Shown piece after piece: positions 42,838 to 58,082 of a stretch of DNA of 64,000 nt. The number at the start of each line of letters is the position of its first letter. Position 1 is the first letter of the stretch. The position numbers and the translations under genes were made by a program. Source of the DNA: an uncultured Alphaproteobacteria bacterium (GTDB taxonomy: Bacteria > Pseudomonadota > Alphaproteobacteria > Rhodobacterales > Rhodobacteraceae); contig OY969797.1 in NCBI GenBank assembly GCA_963703195.1, positions 2,127,569 to 2,191,568 of the forward strand. Direction: 5' to 3'. The notes under the pieces were generated by a model. The model worked only from the letters and a program-made list of their open reading frames with translations. It searched no databases and was not told where the DNA came from.

Positions 42838-43485
42838 TCAGGCGGGCGTGAGCCTGCCGCCCAGCGTGCGCATCGTCCAGTCGGCAAATTCAATCAACAG
42901 CGCGTCAGACGCCGTGTCGAACGCGCGGATCAGCACCGGCGTTTCCGTCGTGGCGGCGCGCGCGCTGCTGGTGAAGCTGCGGGTGGCGATCACGCGCGCA
43001 TCGCTTTCACGGATGATCCGGGAGGTCATGCGGATGACCACCTGCGCGCCCTCTCCCTGCCCCACGGTATCGGCATGAAAATCGATCAGCTCGGTCAGAA
43101 TGGCGAAATCACCGCTCCCGGCCAAGGGTCTGCGCCCGACGTAGCGCAGGCCGCCGGTATTTTGCAGCGTCCGCACCAGCAGTGTCTGCATCAGAACAGG
43201 CGCCTCGTCGCCCCAACGGGCATCGGGCAGGTACTGCGCCTGCAGTTCATCGGGGCGGATCATGATCCGGTCGGTGACAAGCACACCGCCCGATGTCGGC
43301 AGTTCCACCACCACATCGCGCGCCAGTGGCCCACCGCGCGCCACGGGTGCACCGTCAGGCGCGCGCAGGTCATAGACGTCGAGCGGTGTGCTCGCATCCC
43401 CCAGAACACCGAGTGCGGCACATCCCGCCACCATGGAGGCCAGCAGGATGGACAGGAACGCTCTTGAAATGGCTGCCATGGTCAT
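42838..43485 (-). CDS. PqiC/ABC-type auxiliary lipoprotein
   Basis: Lipobox VAGC; TDRI, ARW...P; last gene of the MCE operon. Confidence 0.82.
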   Translation of the reverse strand: MTMAAISRAFLSILLASMVAGCAALGVLGDASTPLDVYDLRAPDGAPVARGGPLARDVVVELPTSGGVLVTDRIMIRPDELQAQYLPDARWGDEAPVLMQTLLVRTLQNTGGLRYVGRRPLAGSGDFAILTELIDFHADTVGQGEGAQVVIRMTSRIIRESDARVIATRSFTSSARAATTETPVLIRAFDTASDALLIEFADWTMRTLGGRLTPA

Positions 43486-43492
43486 ACGCGGA

Positions 43493-45211
43493 TCACCTTC
43501 GGAATGTGGGTGCTTGGGAATCGAGGAAGAAGCGCGCGGGGTCGCGCTGGATCTGCTGGGTCAAACGGTCGAGATTGCTCACGAGCGTGCGCGTCTCCTC
43601 GGCAAGACGTGTATACAGCGGCAGACCTGTCCGCGAGAAGTCGATGACGGATGGACCCGCCGACGAAATCGTACCCTGAAGCCCGGCAAAGGCGGCTTCG
43701 GCGGATTGGCCCGCGGCCCGCAGATCGGCGGTGATGCCGGGGATGTCCGCGGACACCTGCGCGATGGCGCCGTTCAGCGCCGTCATGCTCTCCTGCAACC
43801 CGTCGATCAGCCCGTCCAGATCCTCATTGATGAGCCGGTCCGCGCCGGTAAAGGCACCTTCGGCAGCTTCCAGCGTCCGGTTTCCGGTCTCCATCGCCGT
43901 GTTGATCGCCGCGAGCGTCTCGTTGGCATTGGCAAACGTGGCAGTTACCGTGGCAAGGGTGTTGTCCGCCGACAGGCTCAGCGCGTCGATCCGTCCGCTT
44001 GCGGCCGAGAGGTCCGCGCCCACATCCGTGATCACCGTGCTGGCAGTTTGCGCCGCCGTCCGGATATCGGCCATGATCTGGGGCAGATCGTTTTCTGCCG
44101 CGGCACCGATCGTGGCAACGGCCGCATCGACCTGCGCCACCGCTGCACGCGCCTCCGAAAGCAACGGCGCGCCCTCGGTCTCGAGCAGGGCATCAAAGCG
44201 CGCCGCCGCCGCGTCGACAGTCCCGATGGCCTCCGTCAGGCGCGACAGAACCGTATCGACCGATGAAAGCGTGGTTTCGGCCTCCGTCAGGCGGGTCGTC
44301 GCGGTGGCCCCTGTGGTATTGAGTGTCGCCATCATCCCGCGCGCATCGGTGCCGATGGCGGCAACCTCCTCGCGCAGCGTCACGAGCGTATCGCGCAGCT
44401 CCTGCGTTGTGGCCGTCAGATCCTCGGCGAGGTAGGATTGAGCCGTGTTCAGCGTCGCCGTCCCGGTCTCCAGCAGGGTTTCCGCCTCCCCCGACAGGGC
44501 GTTGATGCGCGTCAGCGTCGTATCCGCGTTTTGCATCAACCCCTCGAAATCGTCCGAAAGATCGACAAGGAGCTGGCTCACGTTGGCGATCTGGCTCGCG
44601 AACTCGTTTGCCGAGCCCGCGAATTCGGAAAACCCCTCCAGCGTCGCGGAGAAGGTCTCCGATGTCTCGGCCACATTGGCGAGGATCAGCTCGATCTGTG
44701 CCCGGTTCCGCTCCCCGAAAAGCTCGTTGAGCGCATCGACCGTTTCTAGCGTCTGGGCGACCAGCTCGGGCGCATCCTCGGTGAGCGACTGAATGACCGA
44801 ACGCCCGGCGGTGATTTCGGGAAAGGGTATGGCATCCGTAGGCTCAAGCAGCGGCACCGAGGGCGAGCCGGGCGCGATCTGGACGAAAGACACGCCCGTT
44901 ACGCCCTGCGCCTCGATGGTCGCGACACTATCCTCGCGGACCGGCGTGTCCGCGTCCACCTCGACGCGCACGAGGATCGTGCCATCGCGGTCGGGGGACA
45001 GGCGCACATCCACGACCTGACCCACCGGCAACCCGCTGAAGCGCACGTCGGAGGCTGCCGACAAGCCTGCAACCGATGAAAACCGGACTTCGTAATAGTC
45101 GAACTGCCGGTCGAGCTCGACCTGCGCGAACCAGAGCACCACGGCCACGAGGCCCAGAAGCCCCGCAAGGGTGAAAGCGCCGATCAGAATGAAATTGGCC
45201 CGCGTTTCCAT
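43493..45211 (-). CDS. MCE (MlaD/PqiB-like) protein with long helical region
   Basis: METRANFILIGAF, VAGLS..SDVRFSGLPVGQV, QGVTG; C-terminal DPARFF. Confidence 0.9.
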   Translation of the reverse strand: METRANFILIGAFTLAGLLGLVAVVLWFAQVELDRQFDYYEVRFSSVAGLSAASDVRFSGLPVGQVVDVRLSPDRDGTILVRVEVDADTPVREDSVATIEAQGVTGVSFVQIAPGSPSVPLLEPTDAIPFPEITAGRSVIQSLTEDAPELVAQTLETVDALNELFGERNRAQIELILANVAETSETFSATLEGFSEFAGSANEFASQIANVSQLLVDLSDDFEGLMQNADTTLTRINALSGEAETLLETGTATLNTAQSYLAEDLTATTQELRDTLVTLREEVAAIGTDARGMMATLNTTGATATTRLTEAETTLSSVDTVLSRLTEAIGTVDAAAARFDALLETEGAPLLSEARAAVAQVDAAVATIGAAAENDLPQIMADIRTAAQTASTVITDVGADLSAASGRIDALSLSADNTLATVTATFANANETLAAINTAMETGNRTLEAAEGAFTGADRLINEDLDGLIDGLQESMTALNGAIAQVSADIPGITADLRAAGQSAEAAFAGLQGTISSAGPSVIDFSRTGLPLYTRLAEETRTLVSNLDRLTQQIQRDPARFFLDSQAPTFRR

Positions 45212-45217
45212 ATTGGC

Positions 45218-46030
45218 TCAATTCGTCCCTTCAGAGCTATCCGCCGCATCCTTGGTGTCGAGGGCAGCACGCGCCCGAGGGCCATGAAAATACTCATGAA
45301 CCCAAGGGTGATCGACTGCAAGCATATCATGCATCGTTCCCGATACCAGCACCCGCCGCTCCGCGAGTACCGCAATACGGTCACAGCAGGCGTGCAGCGT
45401 GTCGAGATCGTGGGTCACCAGAAATACCGTGAGGCCCAGCGCGCGGCTCAGCTCCCGGATCAGGATGTCGAACTCGGCGGCACCGATGGGATCGAGCCCG
45501 GCGGTGGGCTCATCAAGAAACAGGATCGGCGGATCGAGCGCGAGCGCTCGCGCAAGACCGGCGCGCTTGCGCATGCCGCCCGACAGCTCAGAGGGGTATT
45601 TGTCTCCCGCAAAGAACTCCAGCCCGACCATGGAGATCTTGAGATCCGCGAGCGCCACCCGGATCGCCGGATCGAGACCTTCGACGGCGCGCAGGGGCAC
45701 CTCGACATTCTCGCGCACCGTCAGCGATGAAAAAAGCGCGCCGTCCTGAAACATCACACCCCAGCGCGCCGCTGTACTGCGCTCCGATTTCTGTTCACCG
45801 TTCAGCACATCATCGCCCAGAACCGTGACACTGCCTTCCTTGGGCGGGTTCAACCCGATGATCGTGCGCAAAAGCACGGATTTGCCGGTGCCGGATCCGC
45901 CGACCACGCCCAGGATCTCGCCCTCGTAGATGTCGAGATCGAGGTCTTCATGCACGACCTGCTTGCCGAACTGGTTGCGCAGGCCGCGGATCGAGATGAC
46001 GGTCTTGCGGTCCTCGGGCGCCACGCTCAT
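45218..46030 (-). CDS. MCE-system ABC ATPase (MlaF-like)
   Basis: GGSGTGKS, FQDGALF, LSGGMRKR, LDEPTAGLDP, THD. Confidence 0.93.
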   Translation of the reverse strand: MSVAPEDRKTVISIRGLRNQFGKQVVHEDLDLDIYEGEILGVVGGSGTGKSVLLRTIIGLNPPKEGSVTVLGDDVLNGEQKSERSTAARWGVMFQDGALFSSLTVRENVEVPLRAVEGLDPAIRVALADLKISMVGLEFFAGDKYPSELSGGMRKRAGLARALALDPPILFLDEPTAGLDPIGAAEFDILIRELSRALGLTVFLVTHDLDTLHACCDRIAVLAERRVLVSGTMHDMLAVDHPWVHEYFHGPRARAALDTKDAADSSEGTN

Positions 46031-47157
46031 ATCCCGATCTGAGCGAAGAAGATGGAAAAGAGCGCGTCGGCCACGATGACCGCAAAGATGGACGCGACCA
46101 CCGAGGCCGAGGTCATCTGGCCCAAGGATTCAGCATTGCTCTTGACCTGCATGCCCGCGTGACAGCCGACCACCCCGATGATGAGCGCGAAGACCGGCGC
46201 CTTGATCATCCCGACGATCAGATGGCTCACATCCGTCCCCTCGACGAGGCGCGTTGTGAACATGGCGGGTGAAATGCCCAGCTCCACCCAGGACATGATG
46301 CCCCCGCCCAACAGCCCCATCAGATTGGCCACCAACCCCAGGATCGGCAGCATCAGGAAAAGCGCGAGGATACGCGGCACGAAGAGGATCATCGCCGGGT
46401 CGAGCCCGAGGCTGCGCATGGCGTCGATCTCCTCGCGCATCTTCATAGAGCCGATCGCCGCCGTGAAGGCGGAGGCGGAGCGGCCCGCGACGATGATCGA
46501 GGTCAGCAAAATACCGAGTTCCCGCAGAATGGAGATCGCGATCAGATCGACGACGAAAACCTCCGCGCCAAACTGGCGCAACTGGGCCGAGCCCTGAAAG
46601 GCGAGCACCACACCGATGAGGAAGGCCATCAACGCGACGATGGGCACGGCCTTCAGGCCGACCTCCTCGCAGTGATGGACGAGCGCTGTCAGCCTGAACT
46701 CGCTCGGGTGGCGGACGGATCGCGCCAGCCGCGCGAGGAACAGGCCGAAGTAGCCGGTCAGTGCCGCCAGGAACCCCGCGCCACCCGACACCGATTTGCC
46801 GAGCTGTGCGATCCGGTCCGCGAGGCTTGGCCGTTCCGGGGGAACTTCCTCGGGATCCGGCATCGCCGCCGCCACAGTCCTGAGCAGGCTCGACGCGCCT
46901 TCTGCCGCGCCGGTGATCTCGACCTGCTGGCCCGCGGCTGAACCGCGTTCGCGCAAGCCCGTCAGAACCCAAGCGGCGGCGGTGTCAAAGCGGGTGACGC
47001 CGGACAGGTCCACATGGATCGTGCGATCATCCGGAAGACCGCGCAGCCGGGCCGCGAGATCGGTCACCTCAAGCACCGTAAAGGCACCCTGCAGCGTCAC
47101 CGTGACACCGCCGTCCGCTGATGCAATCTGGATGTCGGAAGCCGAAATCTGGTCCAT
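46027..47157 (-). CDS. MlaE-family permease with N-terminal STAS domain
   Basis: DLSGVTRFDTA (STAS); LRELG, AGRSASAF, EEIDAM. Confidence 0.92.
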   Translation of the reverse strand: MDQISASDIQIASADGGVTVTLQGAFTVLEVTDLAARLRGLPDDRTIHVDLSGVTRFDTAAAWVLTGLRERGSAAGQQVEITGAAEGASSLLRTVAAAMPDPEEVPPERPSLADRIAQLGKSVSGGAGFLAALTGYFGLFLARLARSVRHPSEFRLTALVHHCEEVGLKAVPIVALMAFLIGVVLAFQGSAQLRQFGAEVFVVDLIAISILRELGILLTSIIVAGRSASAFTAAIGSMKMREEIDAMRSLGLDPAMILFVPRILALFLMLPILGLVANLMGLLGGGIMSWVELGISPAMFTTRLVEGTDVSHLIVGMIKAPVFALIIGVVGCHAGMQVKSNAESLGQMTSASVVASIFAVIVADALFSIFFAQIGI

Positions 47158-47524: not shown

Positions 47525-47540
47525 TTAACATTAAATTAAC
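47525..47540 (+). promoter_or_regulatory. CtrA-type box TTAA-N7-TTAAC
   Basis: TTAA CATTAAA TTAAC exact consensus match, ending 57 bp before ATG 47597. Confidence 0.6.
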
Positions 47541-47596
47541 GAATATTGACATTGGGTCGCTTTTTTTCTGGCCCGACGCACATTGGAGGTCTGCCT

Positions 47597-48538
47597 ATGG
47601 CATTGGATCTGAAAGAGGTTGCGAGCGGTCTGGGGTTTCCCGAGGGGCCGGTCGCCATGGCGGACGGCACGCTGCTGTTCGTCGACATCAAGAATGAAAC
47701 GCTATGTCGGCTGGGTACGGATGGGACCGTGTCGGTGGTCGCGCATATGCCCGGCGGCCCGAACGGCGTCGCGATCGGGCCCGACGGCGCGGCCTATGTG
47801 TGCAACAATGGCGGTGCCTACGGGTTTGTCCCGTTCGATGCAGGTCATGGCCCCATCACCGTGCCAAGTCCGGACCGGCCTGACTATACCGGCGGCAAGA
47901 TCCAGCGCGTGGATCTGGATACGGGCGAGGTCACACCGCTCTACGATTCCTACCGCGACAAGAACGGCGAGCACAAGCTGCTGGCGCCGGACGATATCGT
48001 TTTCGATGACAACAAGCATTTCTATTTCACCGAGACGGGGATGCAGGACGACTATAAACTGCAGAAAGGCGGTGTGTACTACGCCGCCTGTGACGGCTCC
48101 TCGATCACCAAGGTTGCGACCGTCGACATGGCGAACGGCGTGGGCCTCTGTCCCAAGGGCAAGGTCCTTTATGTGTCCGACACGATCTTCGGCAGGCTCT
48201 GGGCGCTGGACCTCGAAAGCCCGGGCAAGGCCAAGCCCGGCCCGATGCCAGGTATGCCGGGACGGGTGATCCAGACCCTGCCGGGCTATCAATGGCTCGA
48301 CAGCCTCAAGGTGGAGGCGGACGGCAAGATCTGCGTCGGCACGATCTTCAATCCCGGCATCACCGTATTCGACGCGGACGGCAGTCATGAGCTGTTGTCG
48401 GTGCCGGACCTCTTCACGACCAACCTGTGCTTCGGGGGCGATGACATGCGCGATGTCTGGATCACCGCGTCGAGCACCGGCAAGATCTACAAGACGCGCT
48501 GGCCGCGGCCGGGGCTGAAGCTCGCCTACAACGCCTGA
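47597..48538 (+). CDS. SMP-30/gluconolactonase/LRE family beta-propeller
   Basis: GFPEGPV, GPNG.AIGPDG, PDD, ANGVGL, LDSLKV, TNLCFGG; GGAGG RBS. Confidence 0.9.
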   Translation: MALDLKEVASGLGFPEGPVAMADGTLLFVDIKNETLCRLGTDGTVSVVAHMPGGPNGVAIGPDGAAYVCNNGGAYGFVPFDAGHGPITVPSPDRPDYTGGKIQRVDLDTGEVTPLYDSYRDKNGEHKLLAPDDIVFDDNKHFYFTETGMQDDYKLQKGGVYYAACDGSSITKVATVDMANGVGLCPKGKVLYVSDTIFGRLWALDLESPGKAKPGPMPGMPGRVIQTLPGYQWLDSLKVEADGKICVGTIFNPGITVFDADGSHELLSVPDLFTTNLCFGGDDMRDVWITASSTGKIYKTRWPRPGLKLAYNA

Positions 48539-48572
48539 AGCGTGGGCGCCGGAAAATCTGGGGGGATGACGC

Positions 48573-49586
48573 ATGGACGATCACGCGATTGCAGAGGAGC
48601 TGGTCCGCGAGCTGGCGCGGCCCGACGGCAGCCCCAAGCTGCGCCCCGTGCACACCATCGGCGTCGGGGTGACCGGTCACTTCCGCGCCTCCGACATCGC
48701 GGGCGAATATTGCAAGGCGGCGCATTTTCAGGGGGATGTCATCCCGGTGACGATGCGCTTTTCCAATGGGTCGGGGAGTGCGACGCCGCATGACGGCTGG
48801 TCGGATGTGCGCGGCATGGCCACGCGCTTTCACCTGCCGGACGGCAGTGCGACGGATCTGGTGTGCATGACCCTGCCAGAATTCTTCGCGCCCACGCCGA
48901 AGACGTTCCTCGACTTTACCATCGCGGCGAAACCGGTCCCGGTGCAACGTGAAAGCCCCTGGAACAAGTTCGTCGGGATGCTGCGCCTCATGCCGCCCAT
49001 GCCCGATCCCTACCCCGGCGAGACGATCAGCCCGAACCCCGGCGGCATCGCCTATGCCAACGCCCATGCCCATGCGCAACTGGCAGTGTTCGAGGCCGCC
49101 TCCATCGGTGCGCCGCAGAGCTATGCCCGCGCGTCCTACCACGCGGTGCATACCTTCATCGTGACCGGCGCGGACGGCGTGCGCCGCTGGGTTCGCTTCA
49201 CCTGGCAGCCGGTGGCGGGCGTGCTCAACACGGACCCGCTGAAAACGCCCGAGGATGAATACCTGCAAGCCGAGATGCGCGCCCGGCTGGCAAAGGGAAC
49301 GGCACGCTTCACCCTGACCATGGTCATCGGCGAGACCGGGGATGCCTTCAGCGATTCCACCAGACCCTGGCCGCCGCACCGGCGCCGCATCGAAATGGGC
49401 GAGCTTACGCTGGAGCATGTGCCGCAGGACCAGATCGAGGGCTGCGAGCGGCTGAGCTTCAATCCGTGGCTGCTTACCGAAGGAATCGAGCCGTCGGATG
49501 ATCCGATCCTGCACGTGCGCAAGCATGCCTATGAGTATTCTGCGAAACTGCGCGGCGGCAATGCCTGCCCCTTCTCGAGGAGTTAG
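48573..49586 (+). CDS. Small catalase-like heme protein (SrpA/catalase-related peroxidase family)
   Basis: RPVH (distal His), RFSNG, DVRGMATRF, FNP...GIEPSDDPIL..R..AY (proximal Tyr). Confidence 0.85.
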   Translation: MDDHAIAEELVRELARPDGSPKLRPVHTIGVGVTGHFRASDIAGEYCKAAHFQGDVIPVTMRFSNGSGSATPHDGWSDVRGMATRFHLPDGSATDLVCMTLPEFFAPTPKTFLDFTIAAKPVPVQRESPWNKFVGMLRLMPPMPDPYPGETISPNPGGIAYANAHAHAQLAVFEAASIGAPQSYARASYHAVHTFIVTGADGVRRWVRFTWQPVAGVLNTDPLKTPEDEYLQAEMRARLAKGTARFTLTMVIGETGDAFSDSTRPWPPHRRRIEMGELTLEHVPQDQIEGCERLSFNPWLLTEGIEPSDDPILHVRKHAYEYSAKLRGGNACPFSRS

Positions 49587-49589
49587 AGC

Positions 49590-50306
49590 ATGTCCGATCA
49601 AGGTGGTTGGCTCAACCGTTTCGTAAACAGCCTGCCCGACCGTGGCTGGTTCCAGTTCCTGTCACGCTATATCGTGGTGCCCTACTGGGTCTGGAAAGAC
49701 CCAAAGCCGAAGCTGCCCGGCGGGCCGCGCCCCTCGCCGCAGCCGAGCGAGAACGTACAGCGCATGATGAACCTGATCATGCCTCTGCGCGATCCTTCGC
49801 CGGTGGGGCGGGCCAAGGCCGTGCTGGCCATCGCCCAGAACGTGGACGAAATCTTCGACGGGCTCGACAACGTCGGCACCGTCCACACGGCGCGGTTCCT
49901 GCTGCTGGGGGACAACCTCTGCATGATTTCCGTCTATGACGGCGATTTCAGCAACTACATCCGCGATTTCATCGAAACGATAGGCTCCGTCTTCGACGAT
50001 GTGATGCGGCTGGTGGAGGGGGGCGATGCGCTGATCCCCACCACCCATAACGTCGAGGCGTTCATCGACTGGGTGCACGCGCATGACCTGTTTCAGGCCC
50101 CCGATTTCCCGACCGACCTCTTTACCTTGCAGGATCAGGCGAAGGGCATCGGGCCTGACGGGCCGCCGCATGAGTTGATGACGCTCCCCCGCGAGCTGGT
50201 GCTGCAACTGGCGGCGAACCCGGACATTTCGCTTGGCGGGGGCTACCGCGCCTACCCCGGCATTTCGGTCGGACAGGTGCGCAACAAGTTCGAGATGGGC
50301 TGGTGA
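49590..50306 (+). CDS. Uncharacterised protein of a type associated with DyP genes
   Basis: GTVHTARF, S.YDGD...YI.DF, F..W, Y.AYP..SV..V; tightly coupled to neighbours. Confidence 0.7.
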   Translation: MSDQGGWLNRFVNSLPDRGWFQFLSRYIVVPYWVWKDPKPKLPGGPRPSPQPSENVQRMMNLIMPLRDPSPVGRAKAVLAIAQNVDEIFDGLDNVGTVHTARFLLLGDNLCMISVYDGDFSNYIRDFIETIGSVFDDVMRLVEGGDALIPTTHNVEAFIDWVHAHDLFQAPDFPTDLFTLQDQAKGIGPDGPPHELMTLPRELVLQLAANPDISLGGGYRAYPGISVGQVRNKFEMGW

Positions 50307-51718
50307 GTATGGAAATCGATCTTGACGATGTACAAGGCAACATCCTGCGCGGCTACCGCCGCCACTTGGTGCGCCACCTGATCCTCGAAGTCACCGACCG
50401 CAAAGCCGCCCGCGCGTTCCTGGCCACCGCTGCGGACGGCGGTAGCCCGGAGGTCCCCGGCATCACACCTGCGACCGACTGGGAAGACAGCAAGCCGCGC
50501 GATTGCTTCAACATCGGGATCACCTTCGAAGGGCTGCGCGCGCTCGGCCTGCCCTCGGGCCAGCTTGCCAGCTTTCCGACGGAATTCCGCGACGGGATGA
50601 CCAACCGCGCCATGAAGCTGGGCGATTTCGGGAGCAGTGCGCCCGCCCATTGGCCCTCCCCCTTCGACACTCCCGAAAGGGTGCATGTCATCGCCTCCCT
50701 GCATGGCGACAAAGAGGAACACCTCGATGAGGTCGAGGCGCAGGTGGTGCGCGGCTTTTCTGTCATCGGCACTCGCGACGGGCGCGGCCTGGGCGACCAC
50801 CGGGTATTTTTCAACTACGTCGACAACATCTCGCAGCCGCGCTTCCACGGCATCAGCGACCCGATCAACAAGGGCGTGGATGAGCCTTTCGACCCGTTCG
50901 GTACCATCCTGCTGGGCTATCCCACCAGCATGGAGAACCTGCGCTTTCGTGTGCCCTCGCCGGATGCCCTGGGCAAGAACGGCACATTCAATGCGTTCCG
51001 CATCCTCGCGCAGGATGTCGAGGGGTTCGAGATCTACCTCAGCGAGGCGGCTGACGTGCTGATGGCCCATCCCGATGGCGACAAACTGCTGCCCGACGGG
51101 GACGAGGGGCGCATCGGCAAGGGGCTCGACCGGCACGGCGCACTGCGCGAGATCGTTGCGGCGCAGATGTGCGGCCGCTGGCGCGCCAGCGGCAATCCCT
51201 ACGAAAGCTCGCCCGATACCCCCTTTCCGGATCGGAAAATATCGCGGACAAACTTCGACTACGGACCGCAGGCGCGCTGCCCCGCGGGCGCGCATATGCG
51301 GCGCGGCAATCCGCGCGGCGGCCATATCGTTCAGCGCATCGCCAACTACAGCCGCAGGCTGGTGCGGCGCGGCATGTCATATGGCCCCGATTTCGACGTG
51401 GCCAGCTTTGACCCCACGCATCGCGACGGCGCGGAGCGCGGCCTGCTGGGCAATTTCATCGGTGCCAATCTGGGCGCGCAGTTCGAGGCGGTGATGTGCG
51501 ACTGGCTGAACCTCGGGCTGCAGGATCCCAACATCACCGGGTCCAACGATCCGCTGCTTGGCGCCAATGAGCCGGAGACGAGCTGGTTCGATCTTGCGCT
51601 GAAGGACGGCGGCAGCATCAGGTTGCGCGGCTTTCCGCGATTTGTGAATACGCGCGGCGGGGCCTATACCTTCCTGCCGAGCCTGACGGCGATCCGCTAC
51701 CTTTCCAAGCTGCGCTAG
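50303..51718 (+). CDS. Dyp-type peroxidase (long form) with atypical motifs
   Basis: DVQGNIL, D.ISQP, NGTF.AFR.L.QDV, CP.GAHMRR.NPR, RRG.SYGP, QFE, GGAY.FLPS. Confidence 0.9.
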   Translation: MSMEIDLDDVQGNILRGYRRHLVRHLILEVTDRKAARAFLATAADGGSPEVPGITPATDWEDSKPRDCFNIGITFEGLRALGLPSGQLASFPTEFRDGMTNRAMKLGDFGSSAPAHWPSPFDTPERVHVIASLHGDKEEHLDEVEAQVVRGFSVIGTRDGRGLGDHRVFFNYVDNISQPRFHGISDPINKGVDEPFDPFGTILLGYPTSMENLRFRVPSPDALGKNGTFNAFRILAQDVEGFEIYLSEAADVLMAHPDGDKLLPDGDEGRIGKGLDRHGALREIVAAQMCGRWRASGNPYESSPDTPFPDRKISRTNFDYGPQARCPAGAHMRRGNPRGGHIVQRIANYSRRLVRRGMSYGPDFDVASFDPTHRDGAERGLLGNFIGANLGAQFEAVMCDWLNLGLQDPNITGSNDPLLGANEPETSWFDLALKDGGSIRLRGFPRFVNTRGGAYTFLPSLTAIRYLSKLR

Positions 51719-54700
51719 GCGTCGAGCTTGGCCAGCGCCTCCTCGATCCGGGTGAGCATGGGCGAGGGGCCGGTCGGCGCCACGATGCGCCGCGCTTCGG
51801 TCAGATGCTGCCGCGCCTGCGCTGTCTTCTTCTTGATCTGAAAGAGCAGGCCAAGGATCATTTCCATCCGCGCAACGTAGTGCCCGTCGGGGTCGTAGTC
51901 CGAATTGGCGCGCACGTAATCCAACGTCTCGATGATCCGCTTGGGACCGAACAGGATGATGCTTCCCAGCGCACGGATGTTGCGCAGCAGCACACCCGCA
52001 GAGGCGCCGCCATTGCCGGCGAGGATCTCCAGATAGATCTCGCAGAGGAACAGCCGGTACCAGTTGGCGGCGATGTTGTAGCCTTCGGCTTCGCGGCGCG
52101 CGATCGCCTTCTCGATATGATCGAGCCCCTTGGTGATCTGGCCCTCAAGAACCAGGGCCACGCCCAGCATGGTGTCGGGCCCGGCCAGGAACAGTGTCAG
52201 CCCCCGCTCCGCGCAGCGCGCGACGTACCGCTCCACCTGTGCCACGGCATCGGGATGGCCCAGCGGCACCAGGGCGGAGTGTTTGGATGCATCCGCGATG
52301 GCACTCTCGAACGCCGCACGCGACACCGCGAGGGCCTGCTCGGACTTCTCGAGCGCCTTTTCATAGTCGTTGCTCACCATGGCGATCAGCGCCTTCATCG
52401 CCGTGCCGTAGCCCAGCGCGCGCGGATCGTTCATCGCGTTGCCCTCTTCGATGAGCGCATCGGCCGCGGCATGGGCGCCCAGCACGCGGCCGCGTCCCAC
52501 CTCGTTCCAGCCAATATGTGCCATGAAAAAGTTCTTTAGATAGGCGTCATCTAGCCCTTCCATCAAGGTTCCCGCGCGGTGGCGCAGATCCTCGAACGAC
52601 TCGTTTGTGAGCCGCCCGTTGTAGCATGAAACCGACATTTGCGTGACTAGCGCATAGGCGGTCACATCATCGTCGCCCAACCGCTCGGCCATCGCGGCAA
52701 GATCGCCACTCACCTCCTGCGCGTCGCGGTAGCGGCCGTTCCAGATCAGGCAGGATGTATAGTGGTGCAGGAAGTGCGCGTGATTTCGGCTGTCGCCGAA
52801 ACGCTCCAGAATGAGCCGCACCCGCACGGCAAGCTCGGTCAGTGTCTTGACCTCGAGCGACAGGCTGCAGCTGAGTGCGTAATCCGCCAACATCGCGGCG
52901 AATTTTTCGTCCTCCGCGCAGGAAGGGTCGGCCTCGTAGAGCGACAGCGCGGTGGCGAAGTAGCGGTTGGCCTCGTCCAGCGAGAAGATCCCCAGACCCC
53001 GCGCACCGGCGAGCGCCGCATAGGTGAAGGCGAGACCCGACCGCTCCGTCAGGCCATAGTGATAGGCCAGACTGCCCGCGACTTCGCTGAGCCGGTCCGC
53101 ACTGCGCGCGGCGATCGCATCCCCGATGGCAAGGTGCAGCGCCGCGCGCTGGTCCGCCAGTAGGCCGAGATAGACGGAATCGCGCAACAGCACATGCTTG
53201 AAGATGTAGTCGGTCGAATTTTCCTCGCGATGGATCACGTCGTGCTGCTCCAGCCTGAGCAGAACCGCGTCGATATCGGGAAGCTCAGGCAGCACCATCG
53301 ACAGCACCCAGGGCGCAAAACGGCGGCCCATCGCCGCGGCGGCCTGCAGCACGGTGCGGTCGCGCTTGTCGAACCGGTCCATACGCGCCGTGAAGAGGCT
53401 CTGCATGCTCGCCGGAAGTCCGGTCGCACCCAGCTCCGCATCGAAAGACACGACACCTTCCTCGACCTTGAGGGCGCCAAGGTGCAGCAGAAAGCTCAGG
53501 ATCTCCTCACCAAAAAGTGGATTGCCCCCTGCCCGCTCCGTCACCTGCGCCACCAAAGCGTCGGGAAGGCTCTGCGCGCCGAGCCGGGTCTGCACCAGGT
53601 CGCGGATGTCCTGCGCGCTCAGCGGCTCAAGCGCCAGCGTGGTGACGCAGTCCGTATCCACCCAGGGCGGTACGTACTCCGGCCTGCGGGTCTGGATGAT
53701 CATCAGGTTGGGCTGGGTGCCGTCGCCCACCAGCCGTTCCAGAAATGCCTCCGACGCGCTGTCGAGCCAGTGGATGTCCTCCAGCCGCAACACGACCATG
53801 CCCGTCTCGCAGACCGCGTGCAGCATGGCGGGCAACAGATCGCGCGTGCGCAGACCGATCAGAACCCCGTCGAGCCCGTCGAGCGCGCCATCCGGCGGGT
53901 CGATCCCGAGAAGGTTGAGCATCAGGCCGAGGTTTTCCTGAGAGTGCATGCCCGCATTGCGCAGGCCCTTGTCGAGCTTGCGCGCGACTTCGGCGGCGGG
54001 ATCCTCCTCGAGGATCCGGAACGCGCCGCGCACGACCTCCAGGAAGGGGTAGAAGGGCACCTGCTGGCCATCGATGGCGCATTGGCCGACAAGCTCGGTC
54101 AGACCCTCGCCACGTGCCCTTTGCATGAATTCGAACACCAATCGCGTCTTGCCGAGCCCCGGTTCCGCCACCAGATCCAGCACCCGCGTGCGGTTCTGAG
54201 CCTCCGCGAGGGCGGCATCCATCGTCGCTTGCTCCTGCGCGCGCCCGATGTAGGCACTCAACCCACGGGCGAGCGAGGCGTCAAAGCGCGTGGCGGCAGT
54301 GTGGACCTTCTCCAAAAGCCACAGCTTCTGGGGCTTTGCCAGGCCCCTGAGCTTGTGCGTCCCATCGAGCCGGACCGCGCACAGGCCATCGACGAGGCGG
54401 CGGGTCTCATCACACAGCAGCGTGCCGCGCTCCGGCGCCAGCGCCTGAATGCGCGAGGCCAGATTGACGGTGTGGCCGACCGCCGTCAGCTCCGACCCTG
54501 CGCCTTGCACGGAGGCCATCACCGACAGGCCCGAGCTGACACCCACGCGCATCTGCGGCTGCACGCCGAACCGCTTGGCGATCTCGTCTTCCTCCTCGGC
54601 GAAACTGGCATGGATCGCCTCCGCCGCGCGGCAGGCGCGCAGCGCGCAATCCTCCTGCGCGTCCGGAATGCCGAACACGGCCATGATGCTGTCCCCGGCA

Positions 54701-54915
54701 AAACTGCGCACGATGCCGCCATGGGCAAGCACAGCCTTGGTGAGTCGCTCGTAGATCATCTGGGTGAAGTCGAGGGCGCGGTCCTCGCCCAGCTCTTCGA
54801 CAATCGCGGTATAGCCAACCATATCGGTAAACAGGATGGTTACCTGCCGCCGCTCGCCACGCGCCGCTTGGGCGCTTGCATCGATGGTTACTTCTTCACT
54901 CATGATGTATGTCAC
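51715..54915 (-). CDS. Class III cyclase - STAND (AAA_16-like) ATPase - TPR-like protein
   Basis: ILFTDMVGYT, AGDS, VG.TVNLASR; Walker A AEPGLGKTRL, Walker B LEDIHWLD, GGNPLF, FKH.L.RD; helical C-terminus. Confidence 0.92.
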   Translation of the reverse strand: MTYIMSEEVTIDASAQAARGERRQVTILFTDMVGYTAIVEELGEDRALDFTQMIYERLTKAVLAHGGIVRSFAGDSIMAVFGIPDAQEDCALRACRAAEAIHASFAEEEDEIAKRFGVQPQMRVGVSSGLSVMASVQGAGSELTAVGHTVNLASRIQALAPERGTLLCDETRRLVDGLCAVRLDGTHKLRGLAKPQKLWLLEKVHTAATRFDASLARGLSAYIGRAQEQATMDAALAEAQNRTRVLDLVAEPGLGKTRLVFEFMQRARGEGLTELVGQCAIDGQQVPFYPFLEVVRGAFRILEEDPAAEVARKLDKGLRNAGMHSQENLGLMLNLLGIDPPDGALDGLDGVLIGLRTRDLLPAMLHAVCETGMVVLRLEDIHWLDSASEAFLERLVGDGTQPNLMIIQTRRPEYVPPWVDTDCVTTLALEPLSAQDIRDLVQTRLGAQSLPDALVAQVTERAGGNPLFGEEILSFLLHLGALKVEEGVVSFDAELGATGLPASMQSLFTARMDRFDKRDRTVLQAAAAMGRRFAPWVLSMVLPELPDIDAVLLRLEQHDVIHREENSTDYIFKHVLLRDSVYLGLLADQRAALHLAIGDAIAARSADRLSEVAGSLAYHYGLTERSGLAFTYAALAGARGLGIFSLDEANRYFATALSLYEADPSCAEDEKFAAMLADYALSCSLSLEVKTLTELAVRVRLILERFGDSRNHAHFLHHYTSCLIWNGRYRDAQEVSGDLAAMAERLGDDDVTAYALVTQMSVSCYNGRLTNESFEDLRHRAGTLMEGLDDAYLKNFFMAHIGWNEVGRGRVLGAHAAADALIEEGNAMNDPRALGYGTAMKALIAMVSNDYEKALEKSEQALAVSRAAFESAIADASKHSALVPLGHPDAVAQVERYVARCAERGLTLFLAGPDTMLGVALVLEGQITKGLDHIEKAIARREAEGYNIAANWYRLFLCEIYLEILAGNGGASAGVLLRNIRALGSIILFGPKRIIETLDYVRANSDYDPDGHYVARMEMILGLLFQIKKKTAQARQHLTEARRIVAPTGPSPMLTRIEEALAKLDA

Positions 54916-55001
54916 AATACGCGACCGGACGGCACTGCGCTAGCCTGTCGGGCGCAATTAACCCCCTCGACGGGCCCTCGACGGTACGTTTCTAGCTGCG
55001 G

Positions 55002-58000
55002 TTGTTTCGAGCAAAACCAAACGCTAAGCGCTTTGCGAACCCGCGCAGGCGCGCTAGGCTCGGGGCGAACGCCACCGCGCCAATCCGGATCGGACCCGTC
55101 ATCGACAGCTCTCTCTTTTCCTTCATCTGGACCCATTCCAGACGCGACCAGATCTATCTCCTGCTGGTGACGCTGGCGCTGTTTCCGCTGCTCTATCTGA
55201 CGCTCGAATTGCCCAAGCGGATCATCAACGATGCGATCGGCGCGCCGCAGGGCATGGTCGAGGTCTGGGGCCGCGAGATCGCACAGCTGCCATTCCTGAT
55301 GCTGCTTTGCGGGGTGTTCCTGCTCGCTGTTCTGGTGCACGGGCTGATGAAGATGTACATCAACACGCGCAAGGGCATCCTGTCGGAACGGCTGCTGCGC
55401 CGCCTGCGCTATATCATGATCGCGCGGATGCTGCGCTTTCCCGCCCCCTATTTCGAGCGGGTGAGCCAGGGTGAGCTGGTGAGCATGGTCACCTCCGAGG
55501 CCGAGCCGATGGGCGGGCTCATGGGGGATGCGGTGGCCCAGCCGGTGCTGCAGGCGGGCCAGATGCTCACGATCCTCGCGTTTCTCTTCTTGCAGAGCTT
55601 TGCCTTCGGGCTCGCGGCCTGCGCGCTGATCCCGCTGCAGGCGTGGCTTATTCCGCGGCTGCAGCGCCAGATCAACCAGCTCAACAAGGCGCGGGTCATC
55701 GAGGTGCGCGCGCTCGCCGCGGAAATCGGAGAGAGTGCGGCAGGCGCCTCCACCCTGCGCATCAACGGCGGTGCGCGCTTTCGTCTCGCGCTCATTTCCC
55801 GGCGGCTGGGTCGGCTCACGCGGGTGCGCTTCGAGATCTATCAAAAGAAGTTTTTGATGAAGTTCGTCAACAACTTCATCGGCCAGCTCACGCCGTTCTT
55901 CTTCTATGCCGTGGGTGGTACGCTGGCCATCCGCGGCGAGATCACCGTGGGCGCGCTGGTGGCGGCACTTGCGGCCTACAAGGATCTGTCGAGCCCCTGG
56001 AAGGAACTGCTGGCCTATTACAACCAGACGCAGGACATGGCGACGCGCTGGGACACCCTGCGCGAGCGTTTTGCACCGCAGGGCATGCTGGACGCCGGGC
56101 TGTTCGAAGGCGCGCCGGAGGAGATCCCGCGTCTCAAGGGCGACATCGTACTGCGCCACGTGAGCGTCACCGATGCCGACGGCACACCGGTATTACAGGA
56201 CCTCGACGTAACCCTGCCCGAAGGCAGCACCATCGGCATCACCGCGCCAGACGACGAAGAACGCCACGCCCTCGCCGCCGTGCTGACGCGGGAGCTTTTG
56301 CCCGCGGCTGGCAGCGTGCACATCGGTGCGCAACCTCTCGCGGAGCTGCACCAGTCTGTCCTCGCCCGCCGTATCGGGTATGCCACCTCACGCCCTGTCC
56401 TGTTCGAGGGCCCGCTCGGCGAGAACATCAACATGGCGCTGCGCACCGGCCCGCAGGCCCCCGCCGCCGACCCTACGCTGCCCGAAGAGAGCACGCTCAC
56501 CGGGAACAGCCCCGATCCCGCCGATGTGCCCTGGCTCGACCTGAGCGCCGCGGAGGTTGCCGACACGGAGGCGCTGGAGCGGTGGTGGTTGACCCTGCTC
56601 AACGCGATGAAACTCGACCTGCCGCTGTTCCTGCGCGCGTTGGAGCAGCCGCTGGAGCCTGATCTGCATCCGCAGCTGTCCAAGGCGCTCGTGGCGCTGC
56701 GCCCCGAGATAGGACAGACCGTGCGAGAGGCGGGGCTGGCCCAGAACGTGAGCTTTTTCGACATGGCGCACTACAACCCGTCCCTGCCGGTGGCCGAGAA
56801 CCTGATTTTCGCGACCCCGCTGGTGCCGGTCACGGCGCAGGTGCTGATCGACACACCCGATTTCATGGCCCTGCTGGAGCGCCTGTCGCTCGATGCCGAT
56901 CTGCTGGACCTTGCCGCCCAGATGCTGGGACTGCTACGGCAGATCTTCGGTGTGGACGGCACCGACCATCCGCTGTTTCAAAAACTGGGGCTGGAGGCGG
57001 AAGCATTCGATGCCGCCCTCGAGGTTCTGCCGCTGCACCAGCGCGGCGCGGCCCTCACGCTGGCCCAGAAGGCGCAGATGCTCGCCGTGCCCTTCGTTAT
57101 CCCGGCGGAGAAGATCGGTCGCGCCTTCCCGCAGGAGGTGATCGCGCGCGTGCTGGAGATGCGCAAAAATCATGCAGACGCCCTGCAACGCAGCTCCCGT
57201 GAGATCTTCGCGCCGCTCGATTTCGAGGCGCCGGTGAAGGGTCTTTCCGTTCTGGAAAACACACTCTTCGGCAAACTCTGCGACGGGGCGGACAGCAATG
57301 CGGTCCTCACCCTGGTGGGTCAGGAGCTAAGCGCGCGTGGCTTGGCCCCTGCAGTCCTGAACCAGCTTTTCGATCTGCCGCTGGGGCTGGGCGGGCGCAA
57401 TCTGCCGCGGATGCTGGCAGAACCGCTCGCCGTGGGCCGCGCCGCCATCAAGCGCCCCGATATCATGCTGCTCGAAAGCCCGTTGGAGAGCTTCGAGGAG
57501 CCGATCAGGGACGGTCTGCCCGGCGCCCTGCGCGAGCTTTTGCCCCATAGCACCATCATTTGCCTTGCGCGTGCGTTCGACGCAGATGCCGTCTTCGATC
57601 ACCGCTTCGAGATCCGGCAGGGGCGCCTTTCCACCGTGACGGCCGATCTGGCCGCCCCGCTCGATCAGAGCGTGAGCGCCGATCTGGCACGCAAGCTGCG
57701 CGCGCTGGAACAGGCGGAGCTCTTCGCCGGGCTTGCGCGCAAGCAGCTGCGTCTGCTGGCCTTCGGTGCGCGGTGGTACGAGGCAAAAGCGGGCGATTAT
57801 GTCTTCCGGCAGGGTGACGATCCCTCCAGCGGCGCATTTCTGGTGATCGAGGGCGAGGCGGATCTCGTCGATCCGTCCAAGGACGCAATCATCGGGACGG
57901 TGACCGCAGGCGCGCTCGTGGGGGAGCTGGGGCTGATCCGCAAGGTGCCACGCGCCCTCGACATGCGCGCAAAGAGCGATCTGAACTGCCTGCGGATCGG

Positions 58001-58082
58001 GGAGGAGGAGTTCATGGACGTCGTCCGGCACGACGCCGCCACCGCCTACAAGCTGCTACAGGTCGTTGCAGGCTACGTCTGA
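55002..58082 (+). CDS. ABC transmembrane domain + degenerate split NBD + cNMP-binding domain fusion (start uncertain)
   Basis: Exporter-type TMD (LELPKRIIN, G.ITVGALVA); Walker A and LSGGQ eroded; C-terminal VFRQGD...GELGLIRKVPR. Confidence 0.85.
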   Translation: MFRAKPNAKRFANPRRRARLGANATAPIRIGPVIDSSLFSFIWTHSRRDQIYLLLVTLALFPLLYLTLELPKRIINDAIGAPQGMVEVWGREIAQLPFLMLLCGVFLLAVLVHGLMKMYINTRKGILSERLLRRLRYIMIARMLRFPAPYFERVSQGELVSMVTSEAEPMGGLMGDAVAQPVLQAGQMLTILAFLFLQSFAFGLAACALIPLQAWLIPRLQRQINQLNKARVIEVRALAAEIGESAAGASTLRINGGARFRLALISRRLGRLTRVRFEIYQKKFLMKFVNNFIGQLTPFFFYAVGGTLAIRGEITVGALVAALAAYKDLSSPWKELLAYYNQTQDMATRWDTLRERFAPQGMLDAGLFEGAPEEIPRLKGDIVLRHVSVTDADGTPVLQDLDVTLPEGSTIGITAPDDEERHALAAVLTRELLPAAGSVHIGAQPLAELHQSVLARRIGYATSRPVLFEGPLGENINMALRTGPQAPAADPTLPEESTLTGNSPDPADVPWLDLSAAEVADTEALERWWLTLLNAMKLDLPLFLRALEQPLEPDLHPQLSKALVALRPEIGQTVREAGLAQNVSFFDMAHYNPSLPVAENLIFATPLVPVTAQVLIDTPDFMALLERLSLDADLLDLAAQMLGLLRQIFGVDGTDHPLFQKLGLEAEAFDAALEVLPLHQRGAALTLAQKAQMLAVPFVIPAEKIGRAFPQEVIARVLEMRKNHADALQRSSREIFAPLDFEAPVKGLSVLENTLFGKLCDGADSNAVLTLVGQELSARGLAPAVLNQLFDLPLGLGGRNLPRMLAEPLAVGRAAIKRPDIMLLESPLESFEEPIRDGLPGALRELLPHSTIICLARAFDADAVFDHRFEIRQGRLSTVTADLAAPLDQSVSADLARKLRALEQAELFAGLARKQLRLLAFGARWYEAKAGDYVFRQGDDPSSGAFLVIEGEADLVDPSKDAIIGTVTAGALVGELGLIRKVPRALDMRAKSDLNCLRIGEEEFMDVVRHDAATAYKLLQVVAGYV

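Follow-up and report, generated by a model that had tools for sequence, protein, structure and literature searches.

What bacterial dye-decolorizing peroxidases (DyPs) and mini-catalases act on physiologically has long been an open question. For one small catalase-fold protein, MAP-2744c from Mycobacterium avium subsp. paratuberculosis, peroxidase activity with organic hydroperoxides has reportedly been found (Pakhomova et al. 2009). DrDyP from Deinococcus radiodurans is a six-coordinate low-spin enzyme without activity at neutral pH, and DR_A0146, its catalase-like neighbor, is reported to have no catalase activity (PMC10820274, PMC6300522); the authors of the DrDyP work give its substrate as unknown, while DyPs are described as oxidizing anthraquinones and phenolics (PMC10820274). 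In the fungal DyP of Auricularia auricula-judae (AauDyP), Trp377 is a surface high-turnover site, and the entry of an engineered F359G variant (5IKD) lists the highly stereoselective oxidation of phenyl sulfides. Here we analyze a gene island from an uncultured alphaproteobacterium of the Rhodobacteraceae, located in a stretch of 64,000 nucleotides of contig OY969797.1 (assembly GCA_963703195.1; hereafter the window), in which a mini-catalase and a DyP are encoded on either side of a protein without a named family. These three genes form an invariant triad across genomes, and their residue patterns and gene companions suggest that the island transforms oxidized lipids rather than H2O2.

A heme triad is the invariant core of the island

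In the window, the triad comprises the mini-catalase, a catalase-related heme protein of 337 amino acids (48573..49586, plus strand), the partner protein of 238 amino acids (49590..50306, plus strand), and a class V (C/D-type) DyP heme peroxidase of 471 amino acids (50303..51718, plus strand). It is preceded by a lactonase of the SMP-30/SGL type, an accessory member of the island (47597..48538, plus strand, 313 amino acids), and followed by a STAND-type class III nucleotide cyclase of 1066 amino acids, composed of a cyclase domain, an AAA_16 P-loop module, and TPR repeats (51715..54915, minus strand). The cyclase gene is convergent with the DyP gene, and the stop codons of both overlap. A preliminary description of this DNA had read the lactonase, mini-catalase, partner, and DyP genes as an operon of four co-directional genes, spaced by 34 bp and then 3 bp and overlapping by 4 bp at the last junction, that encode proteins without obvious signal peptides. 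The open reading frames (ORFs) bear out this layout, with the overlap between the partner stop and the DyP gene applying to a GTG start at 50303; a start at ATG 50309 would leave a 2-bp gap and yields the 469-amino-acid form that is the version in public protein collections. For the lactonase ORF, which ends at 48538, the ORF listing gives 47546 or 47597 as possible starts, the likely one being ATG 47597 with a GGAGG just 5′ of it, and position 47525, from which the operon had been drawn, is part of an AT-rich box in the noncoding divergent spacer. None of the four N termini carries a signal or Tat motif, in agreement with that description, and no convincing promoter or terminator turned up within the four genes in a consensus scan.

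To place this gene order in context, we examined a close set of 80 loci from a genome scan by tblastn with the window proteins. The first look-ups, in Sphingomonas and Sedimentitalea, returned the same genes plus the convergent cyclase-AAA_16 gene. Across the whole set, the catalase-like, partner, and DyP genes occur together in 77 of the 80 loci, and the remaining three are cut by contig ends. The STAND cyclase follows convergently and directly after the DyP in 65 loci, and four loci without the usual cyclase (L079, L081, L082, and L085) carry a different cyclase-NB-ARC-TPR gene upstream. The lactonase adjoins the triad in 65 loci as well, placed upstream and co-directional as in the window (13 loci), upstream and divergent (6 loci), or behind the cyclase (46 loci). 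Directly upstream of the catalase-like gene, 29 of the 80 loci encode a CapV-like patatin phospholipase, which has an intact GGGxR/GxSxG/DGG set and matches PADLOC phospholipase effector models at an E value of 1e-43. The invariant unit is the triad of catalase-like protein, partner, and DyP, and the cyclase and the lactonase are equally conserved companions. The neighborhood analysis of partner homologues that had been suggested as a check reveals co-conservation far beyond chance, and the genes of the proposed four-gene unit are indeed conserved together, but the unit itself has to be redrawn, with the lactonase at its periphery.

The surroundings of the island differ from genome to genome. 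When flanking ORFs were clustered, no further family was present in more than 14 loci, indicating that the island sits in unrelated, non-syntenic surroundings. The pairwise-identity matrices of the five island proteins correlate with r values of 0.72 to 0.92, values that relatedness inflates, which fits inheritance and transfer as one block. Within its family, the island was found in 10 of the 301 genera sampled, and a complete genome of the same genus lacks it; a sample of 400 other genomes from across the class contained no copy, and a tblastn search of 72,556 plasmids gave no match to the partner protein. Carriers include Rhodobacterales, Sphingomonadales, Hyphomonadaceae, Aurantimonas, Bradyrhizobium, Acidiphilium, and Roseomonas, at 60 to 82% identity; within the Alphaproteobacteria, the 80 loci span at least six orders or families. 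Judged from this distribution, the island is a discrete, rare, horizontally mobile, and mainly alphaproteobacterial element.

Residue patterns of the two heme enzymes

The mini-catalase matches the Pfam family Catalase in two pieces (E value of 1e-33) and the NCBIfam model for catalase HPII with 71 bits against a cut-off of 1102, and with its 337 amino acids it falls short of a full catalase core (about 480 amino acids or more). Among solved proteins, the 33-kDa MAP-2744c (3E4W; E value of 6e-38) is closest. In the mini-catalase, distal His27 and the proximal pair Arg316 and Tyr320 align with His128, Arg411, and Tyr415 of HPII and are invariant in 79 orthologues. The position of the distal Asn (Asn148 in the human enzyme) is occupied by Met99, with Met in 75 and Thr in 4 of the 79 sequences; the Asn that monofunctional heme catalases (PF00199, KatE type) need for H2O2 dismutation is absent from this position. 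By its sequence, the protein combines the small catalase fold, Tyr-ligated heme, and distal His that characterize the group of coral allene oxide synthase (cAOS), catalase-related hydroperoxide lyase (HPL), and mini-catalases. A fatty acid oxygenase fused or adjacent to it was found neither in the window nor in the 80 close loci, but such genes do accompany the 38%-identity orthologues in the distant loci L178 and L175 and occur in L115 (see below). The mini-catalase gene is the sole catalase-family gene in its own genome, in which KatG is encoded 0.9 Mb from the island.

The DyP scores weakly against the Pfam model DyP_N (28.5 bits versus a cut-off of 27.5) and below the cut-off of TIGR01413 (50.6 versus 100.5 bits). 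Its assignment is nevertheless secure, because it matches DrDyP (8RE2) at an E value of 1e-48; fungal class V DyPs follow at 1e-20 to 1e-13, and all 20 solved matches are C/D-type DyPs, which fits membership in class V with its two-domain ferredoxin-like architecture. We mapped its site with the residue list of the DrDyP paper (His324, Asp189, Arg348, Leu373, and Phe375), allowing for a shift of 18 between the numbering in the paper and that of the chain. Proximal His331 and distal Asp174 and Arg355 correspond to DrDyP His324, Asp189, and Arg348; neither these residues nor Leu381 (DrDyP Leu373) vary among the 80 sequences. Since Asp174 and Arg355 are invariant, the catalytic distal residues of the DyP are unchanged. 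The difference lies at Gly383, present in 80 of 80 DyPs where DrDyP has Phe375 and AauDyP has Phe359, and we propose from the alignment that this Phe-to-Gly change opens the heme pocket. An invariant Trp401 aligns with AauDyP Trp377. The distal motif reads N-Y-V-D-N in this copy, whereas the family as a whole follows G-Y-x-D-[G/S/N]: the N171 of NxxDN occurs in this copy only, 75 of the 80 sequences having G, and position 175 is variable (G in 39, S in 27, and N in 14). Both heme enzymes had been described as keeping their heme ligands while having changed distal residues. The ligands are kept throughout, as the invariant Arg316/Tyr320 pair, distal His27, and DyP His331 show; the change of distal residues applies to the mini-catalase, with its Asn-to-Met99 replacement, but in the DyP it is confined to the Phe of the pocket.

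A partner protein with a Dabb/ABM-like fold

The partner is the most conserved island protein (60 to 82% identity among orthologues) and at the same time the one without a family: it has no Pfam or NCBIfam match at an E value of 0.01, no PADLOC match, and, for its family profile, no sequence match in the PDB at an E value of 1. Its 743 close homologues are all unnamed, and 419 cluster representatives remain at 50% identity. It has no hydrophobic stretch of transmembrane grade. An AlphaFold model (pLDDT of 88, pTM of 0.80) shows an aromatic N-terminal helical hairpin (residues 7 to 36) ahead of a ferredoxin-like core. Foldseek ranks ABM/Dabb proteins first, at a probability of 0.99 to 1.0 and an E value of about 5e-3, with unrelated folds interspersed at low probability, and nearly all 50 VIA matches are ABM/Dabb proteins as well, with Z scores of 7.3 to 4.9 over residues 51 to 224. 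We therefore assign the partner, with moderate confidence, a predicted ferredoxin-like fold of the Dabb/ABM type, where Z scores below 8 speak for a likeness of fold rather than of function. Its best fold matches are polyketide cyclases, decarboxylases, and cofactor-free oxygenases, and the heme-related IsdG and MhuD are also among the matches (Z scores of 5.4 to 5.5), ranked below many ABM proteins. Five residues (His99, Arg102, Phe103, Asp117, and Tyr123) are invariant even when distant relatives are included.

Natural fusions tie the partner domain to heme proteins. Catalase::partner fusions form 21 clusters, one of which was verified in the canonical context (L095), and in partner::DyP fusions the partner core stands in front of the DyP. 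A 1031-amino-acid protein joins P450, partner, and DyP (P0212, L086:8-3103), a further fusion joins P450 and partner (P0187), and in secreted proteins of about 600 amino acids with a CxxCH heme c motif the partner domain forms the C terminus (P0226/P0219; L089:9001-10950 and L087:1626-3458). Being fused to catalase-like proteins and DyPs, to P450s, and to CxxCH proteins, the domain accompanies three chemically different kinds of heme protein.

We next asked which of the heme enzymes the partner might contact. Complex prediction for the DyP and the partner gave a score of 0.76, compared with 0.00 for the best control. Of solved complexes, 58 of 80 reach this mark, as do 2 of 110 mismatched pairs; because the prediction used our own alignments, these counts apply only roughly. 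Individual runs agree in at least 90% of the contacts, with a partner pLDDT of at least 82. The predicted interface is built from invariant residues on both sides, namely, positions 94 to 97, 117 to 133, and 224 to 238 of the partner and the segment from 389 to 415 around Trp401 of the DyP. The model thus supports binding of the partner to the DyP. Binding to the mini-catalase is also probable; for this pair, the AlphaFold model of the natural catalase::partner fusion, computed from 21 near-identical rows, has a pLDDT of 46 and is uninformative on docking.

Lactonase and STAND cyclase

The lactonase is a six-bladed beta-propeller protein of the SGL family (Pfam SGL, E value of 3e-37 over residues 31 to 309). 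Its closest solved relative, at an E value of 5e-70 over 306 residues, is Rpa3624 from Rhodopseudomonas palustris (7RIS/8DJF), a Ca-dependent lactonase of broad specificity that belongs to a hydrophobic-substrate subclade, is explicitly no gluconolactonase, and hydrolyzes aromatic lactones too (PMC9843451). At the locus with the catalase::partner fusion (L095:6940-7900), the lactonase is called as two pieces of 124 and 193 amino acids, which may reflect a frameshift or a sequencing error.

The cyclase consists of a Pfam Guanylate_cyc domain (residues 22 to 200), an AAA_16 module (residues 222 to 406), and C-terminal TPR repeats (TPR_12), a layout that fits STAND NTPase signaling proteins with their N-terminal output, P-loop module, and repeat sensor. 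It keeps both metal-binding Asp residues and the Asn and Arg of class III cyclases. The position of the purine-specifying Lys is Ser71 (codon 54703-54705), with Gly in the orthologue consensus. The cyclase domain matches the PycC models of PADLOC at an E value of 7e-15. The STAND partners of relatives have NB-ARC or nSTAND1 modules, or else BTAD as their output domain.

Divergent from the cyclase gene, the window encodes a protein of 1026 amino acids with an ABC transmembrane domain and a C-terminal cyclic nucleotide monophosphate (cNMP)-binding domain (55002-58082, plus strand). It is plausible that this protein receives the cyclase product in this genome; it is present in none of the 80 other loci. 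An ORF on the opposite strand (54912-56159, minus strand), which has no Pfam match, was set aside as a probably spurious shadow of this gene.

Lipid and oxygenase genes in distant relatives

We also collected a distant set of 80 metagenome loci, many of them short contigs, around partner homologues that are 40 to 77% identical to P0141, a query that is itself 42% identical to the partner of the window. A DyP was found in 63 of these loci, and the catalase-like/partner family likewise in 63; a STAND protein is present in 35, patatins of two families in 8, the lactonase in 4, and an animal-heme-peroxidase protein in 3.

Two of these loci, L178 and L175, which come from two different metagenome assemblies, share the order cyclase-STAND, mini-catalase, partner, DyP::lipoxygenase, alpha-dioxygenase homologue, and patatin. 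Their mini-catalase is 38% identical to that of the window and also has Met at the Asn site. The DyP::lipoxygenase is a single open frame of 1076 amino acids (L178:7257-10484 and L175:2475-5702), whose DyP part is 39% identical to the DyP of the window (E value of 5e-102) and retains the Gly and the Trp, and whose C-terminal part matches the lipoxygenases 11R-LOX and ALOX12 (E value of 1e-15). To our knowledge, no DyP-lipoxygenase fusion has been described. The adjoining protein of 899 amino acids is a homologue of plant fatty acid alpha-dioxygenases (4KVJ, E value of 7e-114). The fusion together with the adjoining alpha-dioxygenase homologue suggests deliberate production of the hydroperoxide in those relatives.

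Further loci vary this theme. L115 encodes a TPR-fused protein of the animal-heme-peroxidase family (An_peroxidase) and a Tle1-like lipase. In L089, a patatin is translationally coupled to the c-heme::partner protein, with two small paralogues of the partner and a DyP of 30% identity next to it, and the locus adjoins an integrase and a transposase. In some soil relatives, a DNA-binding BTAD/Trans_reg_C output of the SARP type replaces the cyclase in the STAND protein (L104:11973-15032 and, apparently, L107:3649-7956), which argues that the STAND component is the sensor or regulator of the island.

A candidate pathway for fatty acid hydroperoxides

From the gene content, its co-conservation, the residue patterns, the fusions, the fold of the partner, and the predicted DyP-partner complex, we infer a substrate class, an order of reactions, and a role for the cyclase. 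We consider it fairly probable that the island encodes a cyclic-nucleotide-linked pathway that transforms fatty acid (acyl) hydroperoxides or closely related oxidized lipids, and not H2O2. At its center would stand a three-protein heme machine, in which a mini-catalase with Tyr-ligated heme and a DyP with an open pocket are joined by a Dabb/ABM adaptor that would bind the DyP and probably the mini-catalase, and which would act on fatty acid hydroperoxides or related oxidized lipids. The pathway may serve biosynthesis, signaling, or the repair or detoxification of lipid peroxides. In relatives, island-encoded phospholipases could supply the substrates, and in distant lineages a DyP-fused lipoxygenase and an alpha-dioxygenase could do so. 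With no lipase or oxygenase in the island of the window, hydroperoxides would here come from nonenzymatic (e.g., photo-oxidative) or external sources, or through lipases encoded elsewhere. The lactonase, being of the hydrophobic-lactone type, would open a lactone product or by-product, and the TPR/ATPase part of the STAND cyclase would sense a ligand, perhaps the product or lipid damage, with a cyclic nucleotide as its output. That the island does more than scavenge H2O2 had been proposed before, and the residue pattern and gene companions support it: the distal Asn is lost, KatG is encoded elsewhere, DrDyP is inactive at neutral pH and DR_A0146 reportedly has no catalase activity, and the island companions point the same way. 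The proposed likeness to catalase-related hydroperoxide-transforming enzymes fits as well, and the patatins, the DyP::lipoxygenase fusion, and the alpha-dioxygenase homologue found beside orthologous triads independently support a chemistry of fatty acid hydroperoxides.

Several observations weigh against this pathway. The island of the window contains no lipoxygenase, dioxygenase, or patatin that would account for a supply of hydroperoxides in this organism. A CapV-like patatin query had no match in its own genome, and the three patatin-family genes that this genome does have lie far from the island. Its one animal-heme-peroxidase gene (C1:675266-677683; L179:1255-3672) encodes a likely secreted protein of 805 amino acids of the lactoperoxidase/peroxinectin type with C-terminal RTX repeats; we rejected it as a candidate oxygenase, given this type and an identity of 27% to the island-linked alpha-dioxygenase homologue. 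A family search for lipoxygenases in the same genome gave no match, but control genomes gave none either, so that absence is not shown. Among the distant relatives, the association with an oxygenase is limited to 3 of 80 loci, many of which are short contigs. The match of the partner to the Dabb fold is a moderate one (Z score of about 7), and both DyPs and ABM proteins act on aromatic and quinone substrates too. Patatins and STAND cyclases are equally typical of conflict systems, and functional statements on the island enzymes rest on homology and context throughout.

The pairing of patatins with STAND cyclases leads to the main rival, which we regard as unlikely: a conflict system for anti-phage defense or abortive infection. 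Partly overlapping with the hydroperoxide pathway, it would have the STAND cyclase sense an invader and a cyclic nucleotide activate a membrane-attacking effector (the CapV-like patatin in relatives, the cNMP-binding membrane protein here), while the heme triad adds to the damage or produces a lipid that is toxic or acts as a signal. Such a system would account for the STAND ATPase with its TPR sensor, for the matches of the cyclase to PycC and of the patatin to phospholipase effectors, and for the cNMP-binding ABC_membrane protein divergent from the cyclase, and the rare and patchy spread across orders in non-syntenic flanks, next to an integrase and a transposase in L089, would fit it. However, what is invariant is the heme triad and no sensor-effector pair; the patatin accompanies it in fewer than half of the loci (29 of 80), and the cNMP-binding protein is missing from all others. 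No PADLOC model matches the triad or the lactonase, weak PycC matches come with any class III cyclase, and the BTAD transcription-activator output of some relatives fits a regulator. There are also no plasmid- or phage-linked copies, and the high conservation of the proteins, exemplified by the partner, is unlike that of fast-evolving defense genes. Also unlikely, and a shade more so, is a stress-protection module that reduces H2O2 or organic and lipid hydroperoxides to alcohols and repairs membrane damage with no defined product or signal. The mini-catalase and the DyP both stem from peroxide-handling families, a lipase could excise damaged acyl chains, the window has no island-encoded oxygenase, and many host genera are marine surface bacteria, for which photo-oxidative stress is plausible. 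Against this stand the lost distal Asn, the reported inactivity of DR_A0146 as a catalase and of DrDyP at neutral pH, and the deliberate production of hydroperoxide suggested by the DyP-lipoxygenase fusion and its adjoining alpha-dioxygenase; a lactonase and a dedicated STAND sensor would be unexpected for plain detoxification, and a rarity of 3% of genera fits a niche function.

Two further explanations shift the substrate away from lipids. It is improbable, in our view, that the island tailors or degrades a non-lipid aromatic or quinone-type small molecule, with the lactonase opening an aromatic lactone. Polyketide, non-ribosomal, and aromatic-catabolic genes do not recur beside the island, and the companions that do recur are lipases and fatty acid oxygenases, even though the partner most resembles polyketide cyclases, decarboxylases, and cofactor-free oxygenases in fold, DyPs oxidize anthraquinones and phenolics, Rpa3624 accepts aromatic lactones, and P450s replace the mini-catalase in some fusions. 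Least probable of all, and by our estimate very improbable, is a role in heme or iron handling, in which the DyP would be a deferrochelatase like EfeB or YfeX, the Dabb protein an IsdG-like heme-degrading or chaperone subunit, and the mini-catalase a heme store. This reading draws on source records that annotate DyP orthologues as deferrochelatase/peroxidase EfeB, on IsdG and MhuD among the fold matches of the partner, on the invariant His99 and Arg102, which could bind heme, and on the fusion of the partner domain to three kinds of heme protein. Yet the IsdG-type matches rank below many ABM proteins, iron or heme transporters, Fur-type regulators, and siderophore genes do not recur at the loci, and the associations with lipase, oxygenase, lactonase, and STAND genes would be left unexplained.

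Implications

The island gives DyPs and mini-catalases a defined genetic context, with an obligatory unnamed partner, fusions to lipoxygenase, P450, and c-type heme proteins, and a dedicated STAND sensor. This context makes the hypothesis of a complex acting on fatty acid hydroperoxides directly testable with a few recombinant proteins and commercial hydroperoxides. If the hypothesis is true, bacterial oxylipin metabolism would gain a new branch, and lipid oxidation in bacteria would be tied to STAND/NLR-type sensing and cyclic-nucleotide signaling. Marine Rhodobacterales make up many of the carriers, and for such habitats a role of oxidized lipids as signals and toxins has been proposed. It is tempting to speculate further that an NLR-like STAND sensor controls, via a cyclic nucleotide, a phospholipase-fed oxylipin pathway run by a new three-subunit heme machine, as a prokaryotic counterpart and possibly a forerunner of the eukaryotic signaling route from sensor through lipase to oxygenated fatty acid mediators, and that the Dabb proteins are a new family of adaptors coupling DyPs to catalase-like, P450, or c-type heme enzymes; we hold this extended scenario to be possible but doubtful.

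Neighboring DNA

Divergent from the island, the minus strand carries an operon of the Mla/MCE type for lipid transport (42838-47157), which encodes a STAS-MlaE protein, an ABC ATPase, a long MlaD protein, and an auxiliary lipoprotein. We considered it as an island member, an attractive idea in view of the proposed lipid chemistry, and rejected it, as it is not co-conserved in other genomes.

The spacer ahead of the lactonase gene contains a perfect TTAA-N7-TTAAC, a CtrA-type box, at 47525-47540. This box was rejected as a family feature: a perfect TTAA-N7-TTAA at most 2.6 kb upstream of the catalase-like gene was found in 6 of 78 loci, where it is the sole such site in 20 kb and lies just upstream of the operon, and in none of the other 72. 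With one mismatch allowed, a site lies within 200 bp of the first gene in 6 loci, about six-fold over background in AT-richer spacers.

Comparison with known systems

We found no published description of the island in the literature searched, which agrees with the earlier impression of a pathway not recognizable as a described one. Several known systems nevertheless share parts of it. The 10S-dioxygenase/HPL (10S-DOX/HPL) system of Nostoc (Brash et al. 2014, J Biol Chem 289:13101, cited in PMC9579011) pairs a small catalase-related heme protein with a heme fatty acid dioxygenase of the animal-peroxidase/cyclooxygenase (COX) superfamily, and distant island relatives similarly have an alpha-dioxygenase homologue by the mini-catalase, whereas the window has no dioxygenase. 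This dioxygenase/catalase-related pair is not known to include a DyP, a Dabb partner, a STAND cyclase, or a lactonase. In the coral allene oxide synthase-lipoxygenase fusion (AOS-LOX; 3DY5 and 3FG1) and the cyanobacterial mini-catalase-LOX proteins, a hydroperoxide-consuming heme enzyme is fused to the lipoxygenase that makes the hydroperoxide, and the DyP::LOX proteins of L178 and L175, whose LOX part matches 3DY5 and 3FG1 at E values of about 1e-10, appear to follow the same logic. Coral AOS-LOX also uses the catalase fold without catalase chemistry, as we propose for the island. It differs in that in L178 and L175 the DyP is the LOX-fused heme part, accompanied by a separate mini-catalase and a Dabb protein. 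A further difference is that cAOS retains the distal Asn, which is Met in the island mini-catalase.

Among the individual proteins, MAP-2744c is similar in size to the mini-catalase and, like it, keeps the proximal Arg and Tyr and the distal His but does not conserve the distal Asn, with Gln at this position in the alignment where the island protein has Met. D. radiodurans DR_A0145 (DrDyP; 8RE2/8RE3), the solved DyP closest to that of the window, is likewise a class V DyP encoded beside a catalase-like protein, DR_A0146, and has a non-Gly residue at the fifth position of its GXXDG motif (Met190; Asn175 in the copy of the window); in contrast to the Gly of the island family, it keeps Phe375, and no cyclase or lactonase is reported at the Deinococcus locus. 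AauDyP (4W7J; F359G, 5IKD), again of class V, shares the Asp, Arg, His, and Leu and the surface Trp377, and the natural Gly383 of the island DyPs equals its engineered F359G change. AauDyP is, however, a secreted fungal peroxidase of dyes and lignin models without a partner subunit, whereas in the predicted complex the Dabb partner covers the Trp region of the island DyP.

At the level of signaling, the pairing of a nucleotide cyclase with a patatin or a cNMP-binding membrane protein resembles Pycsar and CBASS with their PycC cyclases and CapV effectors. In the island, no CD-NTase was seen; its cyclase is fused to a STAND ATPase-TPR part, and its core is a heme triad not known from those systems. 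From the oxygenase/catalase-related pairs of Nostoc and coral, which it resembles in logic, the island differs by the obligatory DyP, the new Dabb-like partner, the STAND cyclase, and the lactonase, and by an alphaproteobacterial form that does without an oxygenase.

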